Assembly (NCBI RefSeq): GCF_030684315.1
Contig: NC_081384.1
Coordinates: forward strand, 31,458,935 to 31,522,934
Length of the DNA: 64,000 nucleotides
Direction: 5' to 3'
Origin: Stegostoma tigrinum
Lineage: Eukaryota
Shown here: positions 1,183 to 63,215 of the stretch, one piece after another
Position numbering within the stretch: the stretch's first letter is position 1
How the letters are laid out: the number at the start of each line of letters is the position of its first letter
Notes under the pieces: generated by a model
The model's database searches: none
What the model saw: the letters and a program-made list of their open reading frames with translations, nothing else
What the model was told of the DNA's origin: nothing
Made by a program: the position numbers and the translations under genes

Positions 1183-3479
1183 TCAGTTTCTTCTGTTGAC
1201 TTGTGCCATTATGAAATGCAACTGTTGTAAACGGGCTCTGGTCTCAGCACGGATTATTTCCCAGGAACATTCACTGAATTTCTGAAAAGTAAGATATTCA
1301 AGTAAGTGCATTTGAAAATGAAAAAATTAAATGTTGCCATGATTTACACAGTTAGTTATCAATTCTCATACCTTGTGTTTGAGAAACTTTTCCAGGTTCC
1401 TGAAGTAATGCTGAATGGCAGCATTTCTCTTCAGTTTGTGGTCAGATCCTGATTTCCTCAGGCAGTCTTGCAACTCTCTGAGCTGTTGATCGAGGAGAAG
1501 ACGAAAATGTTCAACCTTGTCCCAGGCCCAAGTGACTGAACCCAGGTTCATGCTGTAGATCTTGTTGATGTGGTGCAGGGTTTGATGGATAATCGCAGTC
1601 CTTTCCTGAGTCTGAACAAAACACACAAGGTTAGAAGAGACGACATTATTTCCGTTCGTGGTAATAAAACGTGCGGCTGGATGAACACAGCAGGCCGAGC
1701 AGCATCTCAGGAGCACAAAAGCCGACGTTTCGGGCCTAGACCCTTCATCAGAGAGGGGTTGGGGTGTGGGTTCTGGAATAAATTTGAGATGCAGCAGGGC
1801 CTGCTGTGTTCATCCAGCCTCACATTTTATTATCTTGGATTCTGCAGCATCCGCAGTTCCCATTATCACTAATACAATTATTTCCGTTCGTTTTGGGTTA
1901 ATATTCAATTCAATAAACAAACAGCAAATAACAGTTAATTGTTCAAATCCAATATTATCACATCAATGGAAAATGAGCAATGCGAGTCTTTAAATCAATG
2001 ATTAAGATGCAGGTATAAAGGGTTTATTCAGCAGAGGAAAAGGGCATGACAAGTTAGAGTTTTCAGCAGCCTCGAATTGTGCTGATAAAAGTGGAATGGA
2101 AAAGGTTCCAAACGATGAATATCCAGTTCCTCAGACAACAAGAAACAGGCTCAATCAAGTCGGAGAACTAACAAGCTAAATAGGGGTAATTGGAATGTGT
2201 GCCGATTAATTAGTGTGTAACACAAGAAGGAAGCTAAACATGTTTTTGAGAAGTGTTAATAAAAGAAAAGCTGGCTGGTAAGGGAGCAAAATATATGATC
2301 CCTCCTCTGTTAGCAAGGGTATCACTGAAGACTGAAACATTAATTTGAATTTACTTGCTTTAGAGAACAACAGTGTGAAACGTGAGTAAAGTGGCAAGTT
2401 GATGATAAACTCAGCAGGAAGTAACTCGACAAGGAGAAAGTCATCAAGAGTTAACAGCGAATAGAATGTGAATGCTACTTGCCCTTTTTTGAATATATTC
2501 TGAGTTTGCTTTTGCAAAGTAGAAATTCGTGTAAAATCATGCTCAAAGGAGCGAGAAAATAATAAACATATCCTGTGTGGTGAAGAATGTTGATGGTTCG
2601 GAACTTGGATGTAACGTGGAAAGTGCAGCGATAGCGAGAAAGATCCTGTGAAGCCTGAGAACAGGGGCCCTTTCGCTTTCAGCCCGAACTTTCGAGAGCA
2701 GGATGGGGATTTGTTCAGTGAGAGGGTTGAGTTTTAAGCAGGCAAAGTGATTCTCAGTGACAGCCCTGTTCAACGTCAGTTGCGGCAGCCGAATGGTAAA
2801 CGACGAATTCACAAAACAGTGGAGAGTGCTGCAGTGATTTTTGTCAATTCACTTCAGCTGAAATGGGACTAAAATGGACAGATGTTGACAACTCAAATAC
2901 CAAACGAAGGTACCTTGAGAGCAGTACTGACAAAGCATGAACTTGTTCACAGTGTGCCAGTCTCATGCTTTTACTGAGACGGGTTGCGGCGATTTACACA
3001 ACGGATGGAAATCATTGCGGTTCAACCTCCAACGATCTGATCGTGTCGCTAATCTCACACATACATTCTCTAAAGTCTCAGTCTGAATAAAATGACTCAC
3101 CTCAAATCCGTCGGAAAGTTTCACCAGATCCAAGGGCTTAGTTTTCAGTGACAGCCTCTGCCTTATGCAATGTCGGGGGAAATGACCTCCCTGAGAAGAG
3201 GAAACAGTCCCGGTTACATTCAGTCCCACAAACTGAAATGCTGGAGAAACACCGAACGGTAATTGCACAAAATGAATATCTATTTCTCCCTCAACCGACA
3301 TTCAACAGCGAACAGACCAACTGGGACTCCGATCAGTTGACACTCACCATTTCGTACAGTTTGCTCAAGGTCTCTGTGTTGAGAACTTGCTGTAACTGCA
3401 GCCTCTCACAGCCCAGGCTCAGGCTCCCTGACCCCAAGAGCAGCACCACCCAGAGTCTCCAAATTCTCGCCAGAGCCAT
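1183..3479 (-). CDS. IFN1: Type I interferon, gene 1 (4 exons, 186 aa)
   Basis: Exons 3479-3348, 3190-3101, 1611-1372, 1281-1183 (132/90/240/99 nt), all GT-AG and phase 0. Signal peptide MALARIWRLWVVLLLGSGSLSLG, then CERLQLQQ; one Cys per exon; C-terminal KFSECSWEIIRAE matches the type I IFN CAWE motif. Confidence 0.93.
1660..1876 (-). mobile_element. Penelope-derived fold-back insertion in intron 2 of IFN gene 1
   Basis: 15-bp TSD ATTATTTCCGTTCGT (1645-1659, 1877-1891); empty site in copy B at about 10016-10030; internal inverted repeat; hammerhead core at 1751-1724. Confidence 0.85.
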
Positions 3480-3576
3480 GCTGCACCGAGATAGCGGCGA
3501 AACTCTGACCAGAAGAATCCGATCACGACTGGATCTGCTTCCAACTCCCAAAACAGTCCCTTTTTCACTGATAATG

Positions 3577-3697
3577 GGAACTGCAGATGCTGGAGAATCC
3601 AAGACATTAAAATGTGAGGCTGGATGAACACAGCAGGCCCAGCAGCATCTCAGGAGCACAAAAGCTGACGTTTCGGACCTAGACCCTTCATCAGAGC
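3577..3697 (-). mobile_element. Penelope-derived 121-bp element between the TATA box and ATG of IFN gene 1
   Basis: Absent from copy B (GATAATG/AGAAGCGG joined at about 11717); same family as 8014-8150 and 46889-46979. Confidence 0.85.
3664..3697 (-). ncRNA. Minimal hammerhead ribozyme motif (Penelope type)
   Basis: Minus strand GCU-CUGAUGA-AGGG-UCUAGG-UCC-GAAA-CGUC-AGC: conserved core boxes, stem II GGG/UCC, 3-bp stem I GCU/AGC, palindromic ACGU in place of stem III. Activity untested. Confidence 0.6.
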
Positions 3698-3809
3698 AGA
3701 AGCGGTTTCCTTCAGTGTCGAGTCCTGTGCGACTGTCTGAGTATATCTGCATGTCTGACAGAGCGAAGTCGGCCTGAGCTGGGTGCTGTGACCGCCTGAG
3801 CGGCCGGTG

Positions 3810-3968
3810 TATATAGGAGGCACTGGCGAGGTGTGGCCATGACATTCGAAAAGTGAAACCAGCTTCCGGGAGTTTTCAATGATCAGAGGAGAGCAAGTGT
3901 GTGTGCTCCCTGTCTGACGGAAGGAATCTGAAAGCTGAAGATTCCTGAAGGAGCGAGTGGAAGATCCC
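3810..3968 (-). promoter_or_regulatory. IFN gene 1 promoter: TATA, IRF/ISRE and NF-kB-like sites
   Basis: TATATA 3810-3815; GAAAAGTGAAACC 3848-3860; GGGAGTTTTC 3868-3877; GGGATCTTCC (minus) 3959-3968. The IRF and distal kB-like motifs recur in genes 2 and 3. Confidence 0.7.
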
Positions 3969-5478: not shown

Positions 5479-5610
5479 CATTTCGTGCAGTTTGCTCAGA
5501 GTCTCTGTGTTGAGAACTTGCTGTAACTGCAGCCTCTCACAGCCCAGACTCAGGCTCCCGGACACCAAACCCAGCACCATCCAAAATCTCCAAACCGTCG
5601 CCAGACACAT
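5479..5610 (-). other. Orphan but intact IFN exon 1 (possible alternative first exon for gene 1)
   Basis: 132 nt, MCLATVWRFWMVLGLVSGSLSLGCERLQLQQVLNTETLSKLHEM, donor GTGAGT; no exon 2 seen before gene 1. Confidence 0.85.
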
Positions 5611-9553: not shown

Positions 9554-11620
9554 TCAGTTTCTTCTGTTGACTTGTGCCATTATGAAATGCAACTGTTGTA
9601 AACGGGCTCTGGTCTCAGCACGGATTATTTCCCAGGAACATTCACTGAATTTCTGAAAAGTAAGATATTCAAGTAAGTGCATTTGAAAATGAAAAAATTA
9701 AATGTTGCCATGATTTACACAGTTAGTTATCAATTCTCATACTTTGTGTTTGAGAAACTTTTCCAGGTTCCTGAAGTAATGCTGAATGGCAGCATTTCTC
9801 TTCAGTTTGTGGTCAGATCCTGATTTCCTCAGGCAGTCTTGCAACTCTCTGAGCTGTTGATCGAGGAGAAGACGAAAATGTTCAACCTTGTCCCAGGCCC
9901 AAGTGACTGAACCCAGGTTCATGCTGTAGATCTTGTTGATGTGGTGCAGGGTTTGATGGATAATCGCAGTCCTTTCCTGAGTCTGAACAAAACACACAAG
10001 GTTAGAAGAGACGACATTATTTCCGTTCGTTTTGGGTTTATATTCAATTCAATAAACAAACAGCAAATAACAGTTAATTGTTCAAATCAAATATTATCAC
10101 ATCAATGGAAAATGAGCAATGCGAGTCTTTAAATCAATGATTAAGATGCAGGTATAAAGGATTTATTCAGCAGAGGAAAAGGACATGACAAGTTAGAGTT
10201 TTCAGCAGCCTCGAATTGTGCTGATAAAAGTGGAATGGAAAAGGTTCCAAACGATGAACATCCAGTTCCTCAGACAACAAGAAACAGGCTCAATCAAGTC
10301 GGAGAACTAACAAGCTAAATAGGGGTAATCGGAATGTGTGCCGATTAATTAGTGTGTAACACAAGAAGGAAGCTAAACATGTTTTTGAGAAGTATTAATA
10401 AAAGAAAAGCTGGCTGGTAAGGGAGCAAAATATATGATCCCTTCTCTGTTAGCAAGGGTATCACTGAAGACTGAAACATTAATTTGAATTTACTTGATTT
10501 AAAGAACAAAAGTGTGAAACGTGAGAGTGAAGTGGCAAGTTGATGATAAACTCAGCAGGAAGTAACTCGACAAGGAGAAAGTCATCAAGAGTTAACAGCG
10601 AATAGAATGTGAATGCTACTTGCCCTTTTTTGAATATATTCTGAGTTTGCTTTTGCAAAGTAGAAATTCGTGTAAAATCATGCTCAAAGGAGCGAGAAAA
10701 TAATAAACATATCCTGTGTGGTGAAGAATGTTGATGGTTCGGAACTTGGATATAACGTGGAAAGTTCAGCGATAGCGAGAAAGATCCTGTGAAGCCTGAG
10801 AACAGGGGCCCTTTCGCTTTCAGCCCGAACTTTAGAGAGCAGGATGGGGATTTGTTCAGTGAGAGGGTTGAGTTTTAAGCAGGCAAAGTGATTCTCAGTG
10901 ACAGCCCTGTTCATCGTCAGTTGCGGCAGCCGAATGGTAAACGACGAATTCACAAAACAGTGGAGAGTGCTGCAGTGATTTTTGTCAATTCACTTCAGCT
11001 GAAATGGGACTAAAATGGACAGATGTTGACAACGCTAAAACCAAACGAAGGTACCTTGAGAGCAGTACTGACAAAGCATGAACTTGTTCACAGTGTGCCA
11101 GTCTCATGCTTTTACTGAGACGGGTTGCGGCGATTTACACAATGGATGAAAATCATGGCGGTTCAACCTCTAACGATCTGATCGTGTCGCTAATCTCACA
11201 CATACATTCTCTAAAGTCTCAGTCTGAATAAAATGACTCACCTCAAATCCGTCGGAAAGTTTCACCAGATCCAAGGGCTTAGTTTTCAGTGACAACCTCT
11301 GCCTTATGCAATGTCGGGGGAAATGACCTCCCTGAGAGGAGAAAACAGTCCCGGTTACATTCAGTCCCACAAACTGAGATGCTGGAGAAACACCGAACGG
11401 TAGTTGCACAAAATTAATATCTATTTCTCCCTCAACCGACATTGAACAGCGAACAGACCCACTGGGACCCCGATCAGTTGACACTCACCATTTCATACAG
11501 TTTGCTCAAGGTCTCTGTGTTGAGAACTTGCTGTAACTGCAGCCTCTCACAGCCCAGGCTCAGGCTCCCTGACCCCAAGAGCAGCACCACCCAGAGTCTC
11601 CAAATTCTCGCCAGAGCCAT
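9554..11620 (-). CDS. IFN1: Type I interferon, gene 2 (4 exons, 186 aa; protein identical to gene 1 by my reading)
   Basis: Exons 11620-11489, 11331-11242, 9982-9743, 9652-9554; GT-AG, phase 0, open frame, CSWEIIRAE motif. Confidence 0.92.
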
Positions 11621-11829
11621 GCTGCACCGAGATAGCGGCGAAACTCTGACCAGAAGAATCCGATCACGACTGGATCTGCTTCCAACTCCCAAAACAGTCC
11701 CTTTTTCACTGATAATGAGAAGCGGTTTCCGTCAGTGTCGAGTCCTGTGCGACTGTCTGAGTATATCTGCATGTGTGACAGAGCGAGGTCGGCCTGAGCT
11801 GGGTGCTGTGACTGCCTGAGTGGCCGGTG

Positions 11830-11988
11830 TATATCGGAGGCACTGGCGAGGTGTGGCCATGACATTCGAAAAGTGAAACCAGTTTCCGGGAGTTTTCAAT
11901 GATCAGAGGAGAGCAAGTGTGTGTGCTCTCTGTCTGACGGAAGGAATCTGAAAGCTGGAGATTCCTGAAGGAGCGAGTGGAAGATCCC
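11830..11988 (-). promoter_or_regulatory. IFN gene 2 promoter (IRF and kB-like sites; TATA changed to GATATA)
   Basis: GAAAAGTGAAACC 11868-11880; GGGAGTTTTC 11888-11897; GGAAGATCCC 11979-11988. Confidence 0.65.
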
Positions 11989-14572: not shown

Positions 14573-17443
14573 ATGGCTCTGGCAAGAATTTGGAGACTCT
14601 GGGTGATGCTGGTCTTAGTGTCCGGGAGCCTGAGCCTGGGCTGTGAGAGGCTGCAAGTTACAGCAAGTTCTCAACACAGAGACTCTGAGCAAACTGAATG
14701 AAATGGTGAGTTTCAGCTGACCCCACAACAGAATCTGAATCTCACCGGGATTTTACTTTGCTAATTGTCAGATCAGGGAGAAATAGAATTCCTTTGTGTG
14801 CAATTCGCTCTCTGTGATACTCCAGTAACTCATTTTGTGGGACTGAAAGTAACTGGGACTGTTTTCTCATCTCAGGGCGGACCCTTTCCCCTACACTGCC
14901 TAAGCCAGAGGTTCTCGTTGAAAACGAAGTCGTTGAACCTTGCGAAACTTTCCAGCGGACTGGAGGTGAGTGAAAACTCGATTGGTTTTATTCAGATGGA
15001 GACGATAGAGAATGTACGTGTGAGATTAATGGCATGATCAGAGCGTTCGACATTGAACATCAGTGATTACCACCCATTGTATAAATCGCCAAAGCGTATC
15101 GGCGTCGTTTTGTTTCTCTCTTTTCCTCGTTCACTAATTCCCTTCCTGTTCTTTAAATCTCCTTATGACAAACCCTCCCCCTGAGACGATGTCAAAACCT
15201 CTCCCGACCCCATCCCTCAGACCCACCTACCCACCTCATCCAAAAGCCTTTCCTGTCTATCACGCCGCTCGAACTATCTTGTTTCACTCAATCTCAATGC
15301 CGCTCACTGACCTCATCTCTTTTCTCATAGTTTCTCACGTTCGCATTGCTCAGGCTTCCTGAAACCTTCTCAAATTATCACAATCTAACTCTCCCTTAAA
15401 ATCTCACTTACTCCGTTTCGCCAATCCCTCCAATCCTGATGGGCTCATTCCTGTCTGGCTTCCATTGGCAGTGAGATGTGAACCACAGAGGCCAGTTAAT
15501 TTCTGCAAACACAGCACCGCGCTGCATCCAAAGAGTCAATCTCTCTCCTGAATGCACAAACTGAATCAATTCACCAATTAATCCCACGCACCTGCCCCAT
15601 AACATAACACACCTTCCGCTTTAACTCTATATCAACATCACTTTTAAAAATTATTCTCGGAGCTTCTTTTCACCACGCGGCCAGTACATTCAAATACACA
15701 CAGTTGGCTGATTAATATTCCTACAACAACCCTTCAGCTAGGTGCTAATGTGATGCTATTTTGCATAGATCGCATTTATGCACTTTGTGGCTATTTACTG
15801 AGACGCATTTTATTCTCCTTGCCTACTTCATGGGATTCTCTTATTTATCCTTTATAAGCGGGAGATCATTGCTGTCTGGCTCAGCAAATCTCTGAACTAT
15901 GAAAGATGAGACGACTGCAGCCCTTCCACAGTAATCATTCCATGCTATGTGTTTACTCCACTCGAGAATCTTTGTCTGGTTTTAGCATTGTTAGTATCTG
16001 TCCCTGCTATTTCAATGTTGTGCCCCATTTCCCTGAAGTGCATTTTCAGTATTCACTGAATTACTTTTGGCTTGCCGCAAGGAACATTCACTCGGACTGT
16101 CACTGAGAGTCAATTTGCTTGTTGAAAGTGCAACGCTCTCGCTGAACAGATGGCCCACTTTCTATTAGAAAGGGTAACAATCTGTGACTAAGTAAGTAAG
16201 TTAAGGAAGTACCGAACTGAAGGGAAGGGAATGTAATGTTGAAAAGATTAGTGACTGAACAGAAGATGAGAGAAGTTTTAAAAAATAGATAATTATGCCT
16301 AAAAATAATAGAGCAAAAAATAGGCTATGAGAATAAACTAGCAAAAATAAAGCTTCTCCATTCGTAATATAGGAAAGAAGACAACTGAAATATATGTTGA
16401 TACATTATAGCCTGAAATTGGCGAATATTTAATTGGAAGCAAAGAAATGACAGAGACTTTGAACAAATATTTTGTATTTGTTATCTGTTTATTCTCTCTT
16501 CAATTTCTCATCAACCTCTACTTTCCTGTAACATTTAATACCTTTGTTTTCTAAATAAAATAAATTCAACTCACATTCATTCTTCAGTCTTGACCTCAAC
16601 CTCAAAGTGGAAATTACATAATTTACAACCTTATCAACATGTTTTCGTTGAATTAAAACTTTTTAAAAATATGTTAATCTTCCTTTTCGTGTTACACACT
16701 AATCAATCTTTTATTTTTTAGTTCGTTCTCCCTCTTGATTGAGCCTGTGTCCTTACGATAGGAAGTACTGAATATTAGTAATGCAGAAGCTTTTCTGTTT
16801 CACTATAACATAGACAATTCGGAGTTACAAAGAACTCCAACTGGTCACGTCATTTTCTATGCATCAAAGCCCCTCTGTACATATTTTCAAAATATTGATT
16901 TAAAGAATTGAATTACTCAAATTCTATTCATTCTCATGAAAGCCTATAATGAATGGGAATAAATTTCTCTTTCCAAATCTTGTGTGCCTTGTTCAGGCTC
17001 AGGAGAGAATTCAAATAATCCATCAAACCCTGCACCTCATCAACAAGATCTACAGAATTAACCTGGGTTCAGTGACATGGGCTTGGGACAAGGTGGAAAA
17101 CTATCTTCTTCTCCTGGATCTACAGCTCAGAGAATTGGAAGACTGCCTGAGGAAATCAGGGTGTGACCACAAGATGAAGAGAAATGCTGCCATTCAACTG
17201 TATTTCAGGAAATTGGAGAAGTTCCTAAAACACGAGGTATAACAATTGATAACGAACTGTGTGCTTCCTAACAAACAATTGTTTTGCCAACATTTAACTC
17301 GTTTCATTCTCAAATGCATTTGCTTGAATATTCTACCTTTTCAGAAATTCAGTGACTGTTCCTGGGAAATAATCCATGCTGAGAGCAGAGCCCGTTTACA
17401 ACAGCTGCATTCCATTATGGCACAAGTCAGCACAAGAAACTGA
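14573..17443 (+). pseudogene. IFN1: Type I interferon, gene 3; +1 frameshift in exon 1, exons 2-4 intact
   Basis: Exons 14573-14705 (133 nt; CTGCAAGTTA versus CTGCAGTTA in paralogs, extra A at 14655/14656, giving TGA at 14699-14701), 14876-14965, 16997-17236, 17345-17443 (KFSDCSWEIIHAESRARLQQLHSIMAQVSTRN*). The extra base could be a sequencing error. Confidence 0.85.
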
Positions 17444-18677: not shown

Positions 18678-18890
18678 GATCAGAGATAATGGGAACTGCA
18701 GATGCTGGAGAATCCAAGATAACAAAGTGTGGAGCTGGAAGAACACAGCAGGCCAAGCAGCATCCTAGGAGCACAAAAGCTGATGTTTCGGGCCTAGACC
18801 CTTCGTCAGAGGTCTCTGATGAAGAGTCTAGGCCCGAAACGTCAGCTTTTGTGCTCCTAGGATGCTGCTTGGCCGGCTGTGTTCATCCAG
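18678..18890. mobile_element. Penelope-derived head-to-head palindromic element
   Basis: 14-bp TSD TTTCTCCAAATACT (18664-18677, 18891-18904); long inverted arms centred near 18812, with a hammerhead-like core on each strand. Confidence 0.85.
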
Positions 18891-19549
18891 TTTCTCCAAA
18901 TACTCCTGTTTTTATCTTCAAACTTCCAGTGCCTGAGTTCTTTGTTTGCTTTCAGATGCTGAAAACTTCCAATTTATTTGTTTATTAAAGATCGCTCCAG
19001 TTTAGACTTGAATAGATTAAATGCCACGGATTTTGAGTGGGGAAATTTCGTGATTAGAAATTCTGTTACCAGTATAAATGGTATCACCTCCATCTGAAAG
19101 GGAGACTGCTCATATTCAACCAGTGCCCACAGTTGTAGGTTCCACAAAGGCACAAATATCTTAATTACATTTATTCACGCAGATTTTATCAGACCCTTAA
19201 CTGTTTCAGAAAAGTCACCACCTCATTCAGCACAACTGCAATAAATGCACGCCTAGGCTGCTAAGCATTTTCACGTGAGCCAGCATTGTCATTCCAGAAT
19301 CAACCGAGTGAATCCATTGTGAGCTGTACCTGATGATGGGTATATCCTATTTAATTAATGAGCCTAAACATTATATAATTCGCCCACGTGGTCAAGTTGC
19401 ACAAGTATCTAATGCAGTGGTAAAAATCCTTCCCTACCTTACCACACCTTCATCCCCGCAAAACGTCGAATATGCCAGATGACTTTTGATTTTCTTATTG
19501 AAACGTCGGTCAAGATTATGCTGTCTGGACTATCATTTATTCGTTTTCT

Positions 19550-24600: not shown

Positions 24601-26748
24601 TCTATATGCTAATGGATACTTACCTGAGGCCTTCAACCTTCCTTCATAAGACAAGCCTTCAGATTTTTAATTGAAAGAAACTTCTTCTCCATGAAAAGAG
24701 AAGTTTGGATCAGCAGTCTGATAGTTCAGAGGCTGGAGGAGTGGAGAAAGCTGATGGTGAGGTAGAATTTTGTTCTGAATGCAGATAAGTACTAACTGAA
24801 GTCAGATGATGCCACCACTCGGCAGTGTGTAGCTGCGAAATGCACCAGGGTGGTAGTGCCTCTGCCTTTGAGCATGGAGAACTAGTTTCAATTCATGCCT
24901 GCTCCAAATGTGTGTAACAACATCCATGGATAGGTTGATTATGAAGAGTGTAGATCCTGAGGAGATACCAGGAGGAACACGGTGAGATCAGGAAAAGAAG
25001 TCGCTGCGGGTGATTTGCTTGCTACAATTACATGGATCAGAGTAGAACGAGGCAATTACAATCGCAGCCAGCTGCTGGTGAAGGCTGGCCGACGATATGA
25101 TGTGATCAAACGTGTTAAAGGCTGCAGACAGTGTCGGACAGATAGTGGGGAAAGATTGCCATTGTGACAGTAACATTGATTTAATCAGTTACAGAGAAAA
25201 ATACATTCTCGTCAATACAGCAGCCATTATTGTATCCTGTTGCGGAGAATCCCATGCTCAAAAAATCCTTTTAACTTGTCCAGGTTACCAGATGTTTGAG
25301 CTAACCCCCATTATCTGGCTTTGATTTTCTATCAGGCATTTTCTTCTCACTGCTTTCGCAATCACCAGATTTCAGATTTCTTCCCTCAGACAGGGAGCAG
25401 ACAGACTATTTCTCATTCTCCCACACTCGTCCAAAACTCCTGTAACCACATTTCGTTTTTCGATTGACATTTCCACACCTCACCCATTGCTCGTCCTATA
25501 AAAATGTGGCAGCTTGGGCAGTGCCAGCTCCCAGAAGAGGCCAGATACACACGCGCGCCCCCCCCCCCCACAAAGACACACACACACACACACACACACA
25601 CCTGTTCAGTTTTAGCTGCCTCCAAAACTCGATCAGAAACTCAGCGGGTTTGCTCATTGTTAGATAGTTTGCAGTTTTGCTCCATTGTACTGTTGATAGT
25701 AAGTTGTTCTCCAGTATTTCTGTTGCTGATGTTGGTTGAATCAATGAACGTCTTCTCACAGGGGGGTCGCTTTCCCTGGCAATGTGTAAGTGAAAGATCT
25801 GCACTTAAAGCCAAGCCCCTGAACTTGGTGAAGCTTTCAAAAGGTTTACAGGTGAGTGGACACTGGACTGGAGTTTATTTTTAAATCTTCTGACAGGAGT
25901 TTTCTGGAAAGCATTTAAGATCAACAACTTTAGAATTTAAATATCAGGCCACCCACCGATTCAGAAAAGTGTCATGTGCTGTTTTCAGTCAGGTTTACTG
26001 AAATAAAGAGACCATTCAGTGAATTGTAACTATGTCAGGTTAATATACTCACCACACAGTCGAATCCAATTTCCAACTCCAGTTTTACAGAGTACAGAGC
26101 TAAGTGCAGATCCAGGTTCATTTTAAATGAGTTGAGGCTTTCTCAAGCACCAAGAAGTGCAGAGAATTCCAGGCACTCATCACACTCCATGTGACACCAT
26201 TCTTCCTCATATCCTCCCTAGTTCCTTCTAGCAGTTGGAATTAGATGAAATGGGAAACAGTTCTTTCTCTAAGATTCCTGTGTGTGTTTTTCTGAGGCCC
26301 AGGACAGGATCCAGATACTTCATCAAACCTTGTATCATATCAAGAAGATCTGCAGCATGAACGTGGGGTCGGTCACTTGGGCCCAGGACAAAATGGAAAA
26401 TGTCTGGCTTCTCCTTGATCGACAGTTCAGGGAAGTAGATGAATGTGTTAAGAGATCTGGAGCAGAGGTCAGACTGAGCAGAAACACCACCATTCACAAA
26501 TACTTCAGGAAACTGCGAAAGTTTCTCAAACAGAAGGTGGGACAATTGATCATTGACTGTACAATTACTGGCATTCAGTTCATTTCATTCCATTTAAAAT
26601 GTGTTCATTCTCTAATATCTCTTATCCCCTCAATGATTCCATATTTCAGAACTTCAACGACTGTTCCTGGGAAATAATCCGCGCTGAGACCAGAGCCTGT
26701 TTACAACAGTTGTTTGTCATTATGGCAGAAGTCGGCAGAAGAAATTAA
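21643..26748 (+). CDS. IFN1: Type I interferon, gene 4 (4 exons, about 184 aa)
   Basis: Exons 21643-21768, 25762-25851, 26297-26536, 26650-26748 (NFNDCSWEIIRAETRACLQQ...). The exon 3 acceptor is GAG, with an in-frame CAG 6 nt downstream. Intron 1 is 4 kb, so the exon1-exon2 join is inferred. Confidence 0.82.
22950..23850 (+). mobile_element. CR1-like LINE 3' end in intron 1 of gene 4
   Basis: [34 protein letters not shown] and YEEWLNRLGLDSLELRRMKGHLIE are typical CR1 ORF2 C-terminal motifs; a second decayed piece lies at about 22060-22600. Confidence 0.85.
25557..25601. repeat. Poly-C and (CA)n microsatellite
   Basis: Seen directly. Confidence 0.9.
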
Positions 26749-35164: not shown

Positions 35165-35392
35165 AACTTAAGAGGCATAAACAAAGTTGTTGGAAAAGCA
35201 GAGCAGGTCTGGCAGCATCTGTGGAGGAGAAAACAGAGTTAATGTTTCAGGTCCGAACTGTACTGAGGAAGGGTCACTGGATCCGAAACGTTAACTCTGT
35301 TTTCTCCTCCACAGATACCGCCAGACGTGCTGAGCTTTTCCAACAACTTTGTTTCTGTTCCTGATTTATAGCATCCGCAGTTCTTTTGGTTC
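35165..35392. mobile_element. Penelope-related palindromic short element, second subfamily
   Basis: Inverted arms; CTGAGGAAGGG...CCGAAACGTT core at about 35263-35292. Relatives at about 45045-45190, 48730-48815 and 63410-63545. Confidence 0.65.
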
Positions 35393-35939
35393 TTACTGAA
35401 CTCAAGGGGGTGGATATGTTGTTCTAAGGCATTGTGCAAGGTCAGAGATTGGGCCTCAGTCTGTCCTGCATGTGTTGCCATGCATTATCTACTCTTGTCC
35501 TTTGAGGTGGTCTCTACAGAACTAAACAGCTTGAAGATTGATATGTTCTATAAGAGTTTATTTGGGGGAGTTAAGAAGTAAACCTGAGTGTATATTAGAC
35601 CATTGTAAACCATGTTGTTAGATTAAGTGTGTTTGGGGTTTGATTAGTTTGCTGAATATACAATGAAGTCTATTGTTTAAAAAACGTGATGTCTTGTAGT
35701 GTAGTCCCATTAGCTAAAATGATTCAGATTTCTCTTTAGCTCTTAACATCTCCTAACTAGATCAAAATATTCTTCAAAATAGTCAGATCCACTGCAATTG
35801 ATGTCATAATTTCACAGTTCATTGATTAATTGATAATTATTGACAATAATAAAATATATATTTAACCACAAAACTCACAAGACCCTGTGAGTTTTAGCTG
35901 GGAAATTTGTGAAATGCTAATATTTCTAGGATGATTTGT

Positions 35940-44192: not shown

Positions 44193-47100
44193 TCAGCTTA
44201 GTTGTCCCGTTATGAACTGCAGCTGTTGTAAACGGGCTCTGGTCTCAGCGCGGATTATTTCCCAGGAGCAGTCACTGAATCTCTGAAAAGTGAAAACATT
44301 GAGAAAAAGCCATCAGTAAATGAATAGGTTTAAACGGGTTGACATGAACTGAATGTCAGTCATCTATTGTCTCACCCTCTGTTTGAGAAACTTGTTCAGT
44401 TTCCTGAAGTATTTGAGAATGATGGAGTTTCTCTTCTGCCTGGAGCCTGCTCCTGGTTTCCTCACACACGTTTCCAACTCCTGGAGCTGTCGATCCAGGA
44501 GAAGGCGGAAGTTTTCAACCTGCTCCCGGGCCCAGGTGACTGATCCCAGGTTCTTGCTGTAGATCTTGCTGATGTGACGCAAGGCTTGGTGGACAATCTG
44601 GATCCTTTCCTGAGCCTGAGAAAATAACACGGAAGAGTATTAGGAAAGATCTATTCCTGTTTGACTTGGTGGAGATGGGGCATGCCTGAGAGACCACTAT
44701 AACAATTCAGTTCATCACTATCTTAACATCTGAACTCGCGTATCAGAATACATAATCAGAATTTGAAATGCGTCCTTATTTTTGTTTCAGCTTCTATAAT
44801 AATTGATTCCATTTCCTTCTCAGGTTCTCCATAAAAAATAAGTTCTCCTATGAGAACTAAAGTTAATACTTTAAACCCCTAACAAAAGCCACAACAGATT
44901 CCGTTGACAATGCCCTGAGCAGGTTTTGATGTAAAATAGTTCAGCTTTTTTTTAGAATTTTAGAATATTAACAAAATTTTCGGACACAGCATTGGTTCAG
45001 GCCAGTCCGGTTTCTAACATACTGTTGTAGGCTAGTTGAAATTTTTGCAGAAGCAAATTATTGCAGATGCTGGAATCTGCCCTGCAAACAAAAACAAAAT
45101 GCTGGAAATCTGATGAAGGGCCATCTAGACACGAAACGTTAGCTCTCTCTGCGGATGCTCTGTGATTACCAGCTTTTATCTTGGTTGTTTTTAGTTGAAA
45201 GCTTTAACTGGGTAAACGATATCGTGAAAATAGAGGAAAAAGATGTTCATTCATTCTACAGAATATCTGTCCATTACAACATTGAAAATCCAGCAGCAAA
45301 TTCTCATTCATGGCATTAACAAAATAACACGTTCTCTTAAAATAATTTACTTTTGTTTTATTTTGGGATATGTTTCTCGGACAAGCCGAGCGGAACGATT
45401 TGCGGGTTGACAAGGCGCACACTCACCCGTAACCCCTTGACCAGCTCGGTCACGTTCGGGAATTTGACAAGCAGTGATCTTCCTCTTGCGCACTCCAATG
45501 CCAAGGATCCTCCCTATAAGAGTACACCGCAGTCAGAATCTGCCTCAAACTCAGTACCGGTAGTTCTAAATTGCTCTTCTTAAAACCACTGTAGACGTTC
45601 TTTGTCACTGCTTGATTGTTCTTCTCACCTAATTAAGTGGCCGTCCAATTTCCCTAAATCGGTGAGACCAAACTTAGACTACGTGACCGGTTTGCGAGGA
45701 TATTGGCCTGGCCAGTAACGCGAACCTAACCTCTGGGACAGCCCATTTCAACTCCACCACCTCGTACATGTCCACCTTAGACCTCGCCCAGTGTCAGCCA
45801 GTGGAAGGCAAATTTGAGGAACACCTCGTCTTCCGCCTGGGCACCCCATAGCTGGAGGACTCAACACTGAGTCCTCCAATTTCAAATAACCTTCCCACCC
45901 ATAGCTGCAAGTGTCCTCCGACACTTCCGCCCAACGCATTATCCTCCGACACTTCCGCCCAACGCATTATCCTCCGACACTTCCGCCATTTACAATCCGA
46001 CCCCACCACCCAAGACATTTTTCCATCCCCTCCCCTGTCAGCTTTCCGGAGAGACCACTCTCTCCGTGACTCCCTTGTTCGCTCCACACTGCCCTCCAAC
46101 CCCACCACACCCGGCACCTTCCCCTGCAACCGCAGGAAATGCTACACTTGCCCCCACACCTCCTCGCTCACCCCTATCCCAGGCCCCAAGATGACATTCC
46201 ACATTAAGCAGAGGTTCACCTGCACATCTGCCAATGTGGTATACTGCATCCACTGTACCCGGTGCGGCTTCCTCTACATTGGGGAAACCAAGCGGAGGCT
46301 TGGGGACCGCTTTGCAGAACACCTCCGCTCAGTTCACAACAAATAACTGCACCTCCCAGTCGCAAACCATTTCCACTCCCCCTCCCATTCTCTAGATGAC
46401 ATGTCCATCATGGGCCTCCTGCACTGCCACAATGATGCCACCCGAAGGTTGCAGGAACAGCAACTCATATTCCGCCTGGGAACCCTGCAGCCATATGGTA
46501 TCAATGTGGACTTCACCAGTTTCAAAATCTCCCCTTCCCCTACTGCATCCCTAAACCAGCCCAGTTCGTCCCCTCCCCCCACTGCACCACACAACCAGCC
46601 CAGCTCTTCCCCCCCCCCACCCACTGCATCCCAAAACCAGTCCAACCTGTCTCTGCCTCCCTAACCGGTTCTTCCTCTCACCCATCCCTTCCTCCCACCC
46701 CAAGCCGCACCCCCAGCTACCTACTAACCTCATCCCACCTCCTTGACCTGCCCGTCTTCCCTGGACTGACCTATCCCCTCCCTACCTCCCCACCTACACT
46801 CTCTCCACCTATCTTCTTTACTCTCCATCTTCGGTCCGCGTCCCCCTCTCTCCCTATTTATTCCAGTTCCCTCTCCCCATCCCCCTCTCTGATGAAGGGT
46901 CTAGGCCCGAAACGTCAGCTTTTGTGCCCCTGAGATGCTGCTTGGCCTGCTGTGTTCATCCAGCCTCACATTGTATTATCTTCCCACCCATAGCGTAGTT
47001 TTCAGCCACCAACCGGATTCATCGCTCCCATCTATCAACCATGTGGTACCTACTCCCAGGATCCATCTATCACTACCATCCACCTTTCACAACTCCGGTA

Positions 47101-47800
47101 CTCCCTCGACCCCCTTGATCTGCAGTCACCCTATCCCCACTCCCAGTCCTGTAGAAGGGTACTACCAGAAACCTTGACTGCTCCTTTCCTCCAAGAGCTG
47201 CCTGGTTTGCTGCGTTCTTCCAGCCTCCTATCTGACGACCGTCCAATTATATCGGTCACGTTTGTACAAATGTCTATAAAGACGGGGCTAGACTCGAAAC
47301 GTCAGCTTTCCTGCTCCTCTGATGCTGCTTGGCCTGCTGTGTTCATCCAGCTCTACACCTTGTTATCTCTAACCAATTCGAGTTACTTTAATATTTCGGG
47401 CTGTATTCATACAAATGGAAAACAGGAACAGGATAGACCATTCGGCCCATCGAGCCTATTCCAGCATGGCTCATCATTCAACTCATTAGCTTGTTCCTGT
47501 TTTCCCCTCAATATCCTTTGATCCCTTTCGCACCACGTGCTAGATCCAACCCTTCCTTGAAAATCATACTGTGCGTTATGCATGCAAACGAACCGGACCC
47601 AAAACAATTCACACCCCGTGAGTGAATTGCATCGCACCACGCCCAAGGTAACACCAGTGTAAACTCACCATTGCGTTCAAGATCGTTAGAGCATCCTTGT
47701 TCAACCTTTTCTGTAACTGCAGCCCCTGGCAGTCCAAGCTCAGGATCCGGGGCAGCAAAACAAACAAGACGCACAGTCCCGAGACACCAGAAAAACCCAT
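44193..47800 (-). CDS. IFN1: Type I interferon, gene 5 (4 exons, 182 aa)
   Basis: Exons 47800-47669 (MGFSGVSGLCVLFVLLPRILSLDCQGLQLQ...), 45513-45427 (GGSLALECARGRSLLVKFPNVTELVKGLR), 44615-44376, 44282-44193 (RFSDCSWEIIRAETRARLQQLQFITGQLS*); GT-AG, phase 0. Confidence 0.9.
45906..46979 (+). mobile_element. 5'-truncated Penelope-like element with GIY-YIG endonuclease, in intron 1 of gene 5
   Basis: NVVYCIHCTRCGFLYIGETKRRLGDRFAEH...RRLQEQQLIFRLGTLQPYGINVDF with one in-frame TAA at about 46344; hammerhead core 46889-46916; 15-bp TSD CTTCCCACCCATAGC (45891-45905, 46980-46994). Confidence 0.9.
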
Positions 47801-57088: not shown

Positions 57089-57291
57089 GGATAACAAGGT
57101 GTAGACCTGGATGCACACAGCAGGCCAGGCAGCATCAGAGGGGCAGGAAGGCTGACGTTTCGGGCCTAGACCTTTCTTCAGAAAAAAGGTTTTTTTTTCT
57201 GAAGAACGGTCTTGACCTAAAACGTCAGCTTTCCTGCTCCTCAGATGCTACTTGACCTACTGTGTGCATCCAGGTCTACACTGTGATATCT
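57089..57291. mobile_element. Penelope-derived head-to-head palindromic element
   Basis: About 100-bp inverted arms centred near 57190; minus-strand CTGAAGA-AAGGTCTAGGCCC-GAAACGTC at 57181-57154. Confidence 0.8.
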
Positions 57292-57454
57292 ATGACTATT
57301 ATTGGTACCTGCAGCCATTTGCGGTGTCCCAGCTATGGCAAGCGACTGTGGACAAACCTCTAACCCAGCTTGGCTAGTCATAGACAGGTAAGGGGGGTTT
57401 GGGGTTAATGGTGTAAGGCTCTTCTAAGGAAGGGAAGTGGATTAGGACAGGTAG

Positions 57455-63086: not shown

Positions 63087-63215
63087 AGATAGTAGGAACT
63101 GCTGATGCTGGAGAATCTGATATAACAAGGTGTAGAGCTGGATGAATACAGCAGGCCAAGCAGTGTCAGAGGAACAGGAAAGCTGATGTTTCGGGTCTAG
63201 ACCCTTCTTCAGAAA
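63087..63215 (-). mobile_element. Penelope-derived short element abutting the truncated ERV integrase
   Basis: Same family as 8014-8150. Confidence 0.75.

Follow-up and report, generated by a model that had tools for sequence, protein, structure and literature searches.

One of two interferon (IFN) genes that encode the same protein in Stegostoma tigrinum has the 5'-truncated end of a Penelope-derived element (PLE) in its predicted 5' leader, and the hammerhead ribozyme motif within it is probably a silent passenger, with any effect on the output of the gene coming through start codons. The window, the 64-kb stretch of DNA that was analysed, holds both genes on its minus strand, along with several relatives in varying states of repair. 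The main parts of the two genes are as follows.

3348 to 3479, minus strand: coding part of IFN gene 1 exon 1, with the signal peptide and the start of the mature protein
3101 to 3190, minus strand: IFN gene 1 exon 2, from the gene 1/gene 2 alignment
1372 to 1611, minus strand: IFN gene 1 exon 3, matching Pfam Interferon PF00143 (E 4.2e-11)
1183 to 1281, minus strand: coding part of IFN gene 1 exon 4 with the stop, from the gene model
9554 to 11835, minus strand: IFN gene 2, encoding the same protein from an ATG at 11620, with both insertion sites empty (leader, about 11717; intron, about 10030)

Gene 1 has four exons and GT-AG introns, encodes a 186-aa protein, and has all of its splice sites and its reading frame intact. 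Translation of gene 2 gave an identical 186 aa, as the original prediction had claimed, and the gene 1 protein matches XP_048416306.2 (Stegostoma tigrinum, interferon alpha-F-like) at 186/186 residues, the public annotation of that identical protein starting at the 186-aa ATG. Type I interferons of cartilaginous fish are described as having four exons, three introns and four cysteines (PMC5332411, in the part available), and the host gene shows the interferon alpha/beta domain, four exons, three introns and four cysteines (C24, C52, C124 and C159). Genes 1 and 2 are 99.3%, 97.9% and 95.9% identical over three blocks, and the read depth would fit two separate loci as well as two alleles that the assembly placed in tandem. 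Seven zebra-shark proteins of one 90% cluster map to a single 41.8-Mb contig.

Broken or partial IFN paralogues are also present in the window, including a frameshifted paralogue and exon-only fragments, and these look like marks of a cluster in which genes arise and die quickly. The paralogue at 14573-17440 (+) is frameshifted by a 1-nt insertion in exon 1, and its leader holds about 36 nt, missing in genes 1 and 2, exactly at the leader insertion site. Fragments at 5610 (-), 12735 (+) and 21643 (+) have an exon-1 match alone in the tblastn map, and a copy at 25750-26745 (+) has a homologous promoter but no exon 1 that could be seen. In run X5, whose type is unrecorded, one contig of 153 nt agrees letter for letter with the last part of exon 3 (1372-1480), and its match ends at the donor site; the depth in the next bin would fit the remainder of the contig lying on exon 4, as in a spliced transcript.

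When gene 1 was globally aligned to gene 2, a single gap of 121 nt was left at 3697-3577, and this gap is the element.

3577 to 3697, minus strand: 5'-truncated PLE pseudo-LTR end with its tail, 121 bp, from the repeat search and the gene 1/gene 2 alignment

The alignment confirmed the claim that a 121-bp Penelope-derived fragment sits between a TATATA (3815-3810) and the ATG (3479) of gene 1 and is missing from gene 2; the element is oriented sense to the gene, in the order TATA-like box, element, ATG. Homology to the repeat extends 7 nt past the element, through 3576-3570, into letters common to both genes, and the 7 nt that follow the gap in gene 2 are indeed the 3' end of the repeat, as was first noticed. 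The description of gene 2 as otherwise near-identical was right about the leader insertion but missed a second one, of 232 nt in intron 2, and the TATATA upstream of the element is present in gene 1 but reads GATATA in gene 2.

Repeats of this family are frequent, with 23 matches in the 64-kb window, and when 88,655 contigs from one DNA run were aligned to a 3.8-kb stretch, the depth was heaped on two repeat sites. Their source is best seen in a longer copy elsewhere in the window.

45852 to 46982, plus strand: 5'-truncated PLE with a GIY-YIG-like C-terminal frame, a 3' region and a pseudo-LTR that has the same hammerhead (46889)

The GIY-YIG-like frame is broken by a stop, its Pfam match (E 0.0027) is below the cut-off, and no RT domain was seen at 45852-46982. 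It is directly followed by a longer copy of the repeat, 46791-46982, which places the hammerhead inside a PLE flanking repeat. The 3' ends of the repeat copies fall into two classes, near element positions 95-98 and 127-128, about 31 nt apart, and this spacing fits the 30-40 bp tail described for PLEs (PMC11167929, in the part available) and supports a PLE origin. The Penelope ancestry originally proposed is thus upheld by the frame that runs into the repeat and by the two classes of 3' end. Two further decayed copies of the repeat lie just downstream of the truncated PLE (45852-47367 (+)). Other inverted pairs, joined at their hammerhead ends, are found at 18686-18897, 35176-35395 and 57090-57314, and the 35.2-kb pair gives rise to spurious Rfam matches to mir-3202 and mir-7094.

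The start of the element in gene 1 reads, on the minus strand, GCU-CUGAUGA-A-GGGUCUAGGUCC-GAAACGUC-AGC.

3664 to 3697, minus strand: minimal type I hammerhead motif, with helix I formed by 3697-3695 and 3666-3664, and the core at 3694-3667

All of the core nucleotides are intact in the leader copy (CUGANGA, GAAA and UH consensus), and the predicted scissile site is 3667/3666, after the GUC at 3669-3667. The original reading of the motif stood as far as the core and the GUC are concerned, but not for helix II, which consists of only G-C, G-C and G-U, with an unpaired A after A9; the C-to-U change responsible for the last pair is found in the leader copy alone among 11 aligned copies. The unpaired nucleotide after A9 and the G10.1-C11.1 pair are features of minimal hammerheads (min-HHR), and helix III is the palindrome ACGU (15.2-16.2), without a loop. 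The three pairs of helix I, which had been singled out beforehand, are unique to this copy among the 13 hammerhead-like cores that a looser scan of the window returned, the others having two pairs (nine cores), one (one core) or none (two cores). A single base at the junction of the insertion supplies the third pair; it is present in 1/11 copies at that alignment column, and for this reason the idea of a 3-bp helix I as a selected improvement was rejected.

The window contains the core pattern eight times; 100 shuffles gave 0.56 +/- 0.72, and 0/100 reached eight. Rfam/Infernal searches found no hammerhead family at E<=1 over the 64 kb (five weak miRNA matches) or at E<=10 over 3540-3760 (five unrelated matches); the failure of the hammerhead models to match the leader motif, a check suggested with the original prediction, points to a non-canonical motif rather than to an absent one. 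In a canonical hammerhead active as a monomer, helix I is about 6 bp long and makes loop contacts, compared with 3 bp here, and here helix III has no loop. Across the 11 aligned copies, 93% of helix II cells are paired and no pair has changed on both sides, and the covariation score was not above that of shuffles (490/500 were at least as high), so covariation gives no independent structural support. To judge by its anatomy and position, the leader motif is a PLE minimal hammerhead, as the original prediction had it. In a further copy, at 63212 (-), helix II and its loop together form 12 nt of perfect palindrome, and in modelled dimers the helix II regions of the two strands pair with each other, so the repeat may dimerise via helix II as well as helix III.

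The age of the insertion was assessed from its empty counterparts. In a related species (organism B), a 365-nt contig aligns to 3381-3571 and 3698-3860 with three letters between, and a second contig skips the intron-2 insertion; the element is also missing from five other aligned paralogue leaders. Because gene 2 and the matching contig of organism B both lack the element, the alignments mark the leader insertion as a young gain, made after the split from organism B, and the candidate role of an old conserved regulator was rejected on account of the empty site in that species. The empty site holds five letters in gene 2 versus three in organism B, and the one in gene 2 includes ATT; a PLE of the anole prefers ATT or an AT-rich target (PMC11167929, in the part available). 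Given the nearly equal spacing and the ATT, gene 2 probably never carried the element, and insertion before the duplication followed by deletion from gene 2 is less likely. The caveat attached to the original prediction, that gene 2 might have lost its copy, is weakened by the empty site of organism B, although the 7-nt match to the end of the repeat is still compatible with it. At the edges of the intron-2 insertion (1659, 1900), contigs of run X1 enter the insertion and those of run X4 end on either side of it; this hints weakly at variation between individuals in the insertion or in gene copy number.

Whether the element is transcribed as part of the message depends on where the gene starts, and two upstream features bear on this.

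3847 to 3877, minus strand: putative promoter cassette conserved among paralogues, with what we take to be an IRF-element-like motif (3860-3847) and an NF-kB-like motif (3877-3868)
3810 to 3815, minus strand: TATATA, reading GATATA in gene 2; at the corresponding position, a paralogous promoter (about 25,497) has TATAAAAA

The spacing from the TATA-like box predicts a start near 3789, which would give a leader of 310 nt in gene 1 and 189 nt in gene 2, and from this promoter anatomy the element probably lies within the 5' leader. Four of 14 listed sequencing runs, none of the 14 marked as RNA, were aligned to the sequence, all as contigs. Run X1, which is possibly related to the source of the window, has a contig over 3668-4345 that reaches 30 nt into the element; run X5 has no cover on exon 1 or on the host parts of the leader, and is uninformative either way. 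The difference between TATATA in gene 1 (3815) and GATATA in gene 2 (11835) could favour gene 1, the opposite of the damping that had been proposed.

The ability of the leader hammerhead to cleave was considered against what is known of its relatives and by folding, which brought in one segment of the host sequence.

3502 to 3514, minus strand: host leader segment predicted by folding to pair with the hammerhead 5' strand and the CUGAUGA core

Because helix III is a loopless ACGU palindrome, a lone copy cannot close it and needs a partner in a dimer. With a single min-HHR of Schistosoma mansoni no cleavage could be detected, and dimers and trimers cleaved at a low level (PMC4209133, in the part available). 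The hammerhead of an anole PLE did not cleave without the PLE protein, and no RNA-seq reads ended at its cut site (PMC11167929); among Xenopus retrozyme dimers, 8/9 gave no product and one was highly active (bioRxiv 10.64898/2026.07.22.740005), as far as the available parts of these two sources go. Helix II is modelled at -0.9 kcal/mol in the leader copy versus -5.1 kcal/mol, and at each of five transcript lengths at most 7e-8 of the molecules are predicted to have helices I and II in place while the core is left free, tiny fractions that understate activity because nearest-neighbour folding omits the tertiary core of the hammerhead. For nascent fragments (n=4), the modelled folding cost was 9.7-11.1 kcal/mol in the leader copy against 11.6-14.5 kcal/mol in three other copies, a difference that slightly favours the original prediction. 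The structure of the whole leader was not unusual relative to shuffles, with z of 0.51 in gene 1 and 0.40 in gene 2, so the helix that buries the core represents no exceptional structure. Modelled double hammerheads reached about -5 kcal/mol versus -27 to -38 kcal/mol for inactive duplexes in 4/4 pairings, and since helix I of a double hammerhead forms between the partners, its topology suggests that the leader strand with its third pair would serve the cut of the partner. At the density of the window (seven independent intact cores per 64 kb), a leader of 190 nt would carry an intact core in sense with a probability of about 0.01, so placements of this kind are expected genome-wide. Overall, it is likely that the leader hammerhead cannot cut the message.

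A possible partner is nevertheless present in the same gene, in the insertion that lies in intron 2.

1660 to 1891, minus strand: second insertion found in gene 1 and not in gene 2 (232 nt, intron 2), made of two inverted copies of the PLE repeat
1724 to 1751, minus strand: second sense minimal hammerhead core, within intron 2; the leader copy lies 1.9 kb upstream of it
1785 to 1868, plus strand: arm of the intron-2 insertion that lies antisense; over 84 nt it is 93% identical to the leader element

The insertion is flanked by a 15-bp duplication (1891-1877 and 1659-1645), and its sense core has an intact helix II and a helix I of two pairs, one of them G-U. It lies about 50 nt upstream of the exon-3 acceptor and is predicted to form a long hairpin of -100.6 kcal/mol, a possible substrate for double-stranded-RNA editing or sensing in an interferon pre-mRNA. 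A cis dimer of the leader and intron-2 hammerheads in the pre-mRNA of gene 1 is geometrically possible in the models, but the pairings predicted to compete with it are far stronger, and the duplex of the antisense arm with the leader element is put at -150 kcal/mol.

The original prediction had overlooked this second sense hammerhead, and also the start codons that the insertion added to the leader.

3605 to 3691, minus strand: three AUGs brought by the element, all out of frame, opening 13 codons at 3691, 13 at 3648 and 62 at 3607
3480 to 3752, minus strand: host upstream AUG at 3752, in frame with the IFN ATG and with no stop, giving a predicted 91-residue N-terminal extension through the element

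The uORF from the AUG at 3607 overlaps the main ATG, and this AUG arises from substitutions in the leader copy that were not seen in other aligned copies. The length of the insertion, 121 nt, shifted the host AUG at 3752 into frame in gene 1; its counterpart in gene 2 is out of frame and opens a 70-codon overlapping uORF. The predicted extension precedes the signal peptide. The contexts of the upstream AUGs are weak to moderate, so their effect on output could be small. The frame through the element is open in 4/5 translated copies, and with an open frame inherited in this way, an in-frame landing is about a 1-in-3 event that needs no selection. An annotated extended interferon of 277 aa was found neither among seven matches nor among 17 cluster members, and the single long cluster member (349 aa, Hemiscyllium) is extended by upstream sequence without the PLE repeat.

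The reading preferred here is that the element arrived, as it may have, by ordinary target-primed reverse transcription and would now be transcribed within the leader from a start near 3789. The leader hammerhead would not cleave, because it is a lone copy without a helix III, its helix II is weakened and its core would be paired elsewhere. Scanning ribosomes would meet four upstream AUGs instead of one, so that the main reading frame would be modestly less translated, and some N-terminally extended product may be made from the upstream starts. Its persistence would be neutral or mildly harmful within a redundant gene cluster of fast turnover, and this is the most likely reason for the presence of the element, which gave no sign of selection.

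The other readings differ in where they depart from this sequence of events. An unlikely one is that the element lies outside the main mRNA leader, owing to a downstream start or to splicing, or that gene 1 is silent, and that there is no post-transcriptional effect of any kind. Cytokine genes do not usually have a leader as long as 310 nt containing four upstream AUGs, the TATATA is not common to gene 2 or the 14.5-kb paralogue, and the annotation of the identical protein begins at the 186-aa ATG. Alternative 5' splicing is, moreover, used by teleost IFN genes (PMC5332411, in the part available). Set against this are the IRF-like and TATA-like cassette conserved among paralogues, one of them with TATAAAAA, with a spacing that fits a start near 3789, and splice sites and a reading frame in gene 1 that are all intact. 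Least probable of all the readings is the one first put forward, that the lone leader hammerhead cleaves itself after the GUC, with loss of the cap and damping of gene 1. The intact core, the GUC triplet and the sole 3-bp helix I among 13 cores speak for it, as does the modelled cost of folding in nascent RNA, slightly below that of other copies. The notion of a built-in damper fared poorly nonetheless: helix III cannot be closed in a monomer, and a single min-HHR was inactive in vitro (PMC4209133); helix II is weakened, the third pair of helix I comes down to one junction base, and the core is predicted to be buried. Real cleavage in a leader need not silence a gene in any case, as cap-independent translation was seen in fungal-virus and plant reporters (PMC13725137, in the part available).

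It is very unlikely that the leader copy damps gene 1 and not gene 2 by forming a double hammerhead with the intron-2 copy or with a copy in another transcript, perhaps dependent on the PLE protein. The two sense cores, both in gene 1 only, are 1.9 kb apart, a spacing that resembles two repeats of a 3-kb PLE (PMC4209133), a long predicted hairpin would place the intron-2 copy between its arms, the double hammerhead of the leader and intron-2 copies is nested and modelled at -5.4 kcal/mol, and a PLE protein of the anole assists cleavage (PMC11167929). The inactive duplex of the same pair, however, is modelled at -31.7 kcal/mol, the antisense arm could pair still more strongly with the leader element, and in a mixed dimer the leader site would be held by just two helix I pairs. 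With an intact core about every 9 kb, two sense copies would be expected in most long shark pre-mRNAs, so that efficient cleavage would presumably be broadly harmful. Slightly less probable again is retention of the insertion for rewired translation, with an inhibitory uORF of the gene 2 type turned into an in-frame start and a 277-aa interferon of altered secretion or location. The AUG at 3752 is in frame, with G as its -3 base in gene 1 and C in gene 2, the frame upstream of the ATG is open for 132 codons in gene 1 versus 37 in gene 2, and intracellular IFN forms exist in teleosts (PMC5332411). Against selection for such a product are the inherited open frame and its 1-in-3 odds, the absence of the upstream AUG from the 14.5-kb paralogue, a 1-nt deletion at 3495 in the extension frame of organism B, and the 17 cluster members, none of them of 277 aa. 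Equally improbable is a combination of the two, a transposon-gated gene 1 in which double-hammerhead cutting would depend on the PLE protein and uncut messages would give an N-terminally extended interferon through the ribozyme.

What most deserves to be taken further is the finding of the added start codons and that of the two hammerhead copies in gene 1. Two genes that encode the same protein and differ by two PLE insertions make a natural pair, and this pair allows a direct test of whether dispersed minimal hammerheads, whose in vitro rates are very low and which may need helpers (PMC6765202, in the part available), ever cut host transcripts in vivo. Were cleavage real and dependent on the PLE protein, it would amount to control of an antiviral cytokine by a mobile element. 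The literature searched, which covered few subscription papers, yielded no report of a host 5' leader in which a PLE hammerhead acts.

The leader element is one of very many dispersed PLE ends, and its kind of motif was described in 2014 (PMC4209133). As in the min-HHR of that description, in the part available, the shark motif has a type I core, an unpaired nucleotide after A9, G10.1-C11.1 and a loopless, palindromic helix III, and it is found in PLE flanking repeats, mostly as dispersed single truncated copies. Helix I is 2-3 bp in the shark repeat, compared with 2 bp in D. virilis and 4-5 bp in S. mansoni; it differs from the described motifs in a helix II of 4 bp in the repeat family, weakened in the leader copy, and in the location of that copy inside the predicted leader of a host cytokine gene. 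The available part of PMC4209133 names no sharks as min-HHR hosts, though its supplement may list them. The Poseidon PLE of Anolis carolinensis (PMC11167929) likewise has a pseudo-LTR hammerhead, two classes of 3' end and an AT-rich target, a likeness drawn without comparison of clades; the anole ribozyme was assayed and is assisted by protein, whereas the shark motif is known from its sequence. The discontinuous hammerhead of Clec2 (PMC6765202, PMC6155905, in the parts available) is also found in the UTR of a host immune gene, where its cleavage was proposed to lower expression, but it is an active type III ribozyme in the 3' UTR of several mammals, and the shark motif is loopless, minimal, young and confined to one paralogue, its position not being conserved in the organism B contig or the five other paralogue leaders. 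The 5' UTR hammerheads of chrysoviruses and fusariviruses (PMC13725137) share the type I form and the place upstream of a coding region; these are conserved viral motifs that act as self-cleaving ribozymes in vitro as well as in vivo, promote cap-independent translation and are not PLE remnants. Compared with XP_048416306.2 and the interferons of cartilaginous fish, the protein itself shows no difference, and what sets gene 1 apart is the two PLE insertions that gene 2 lacks.
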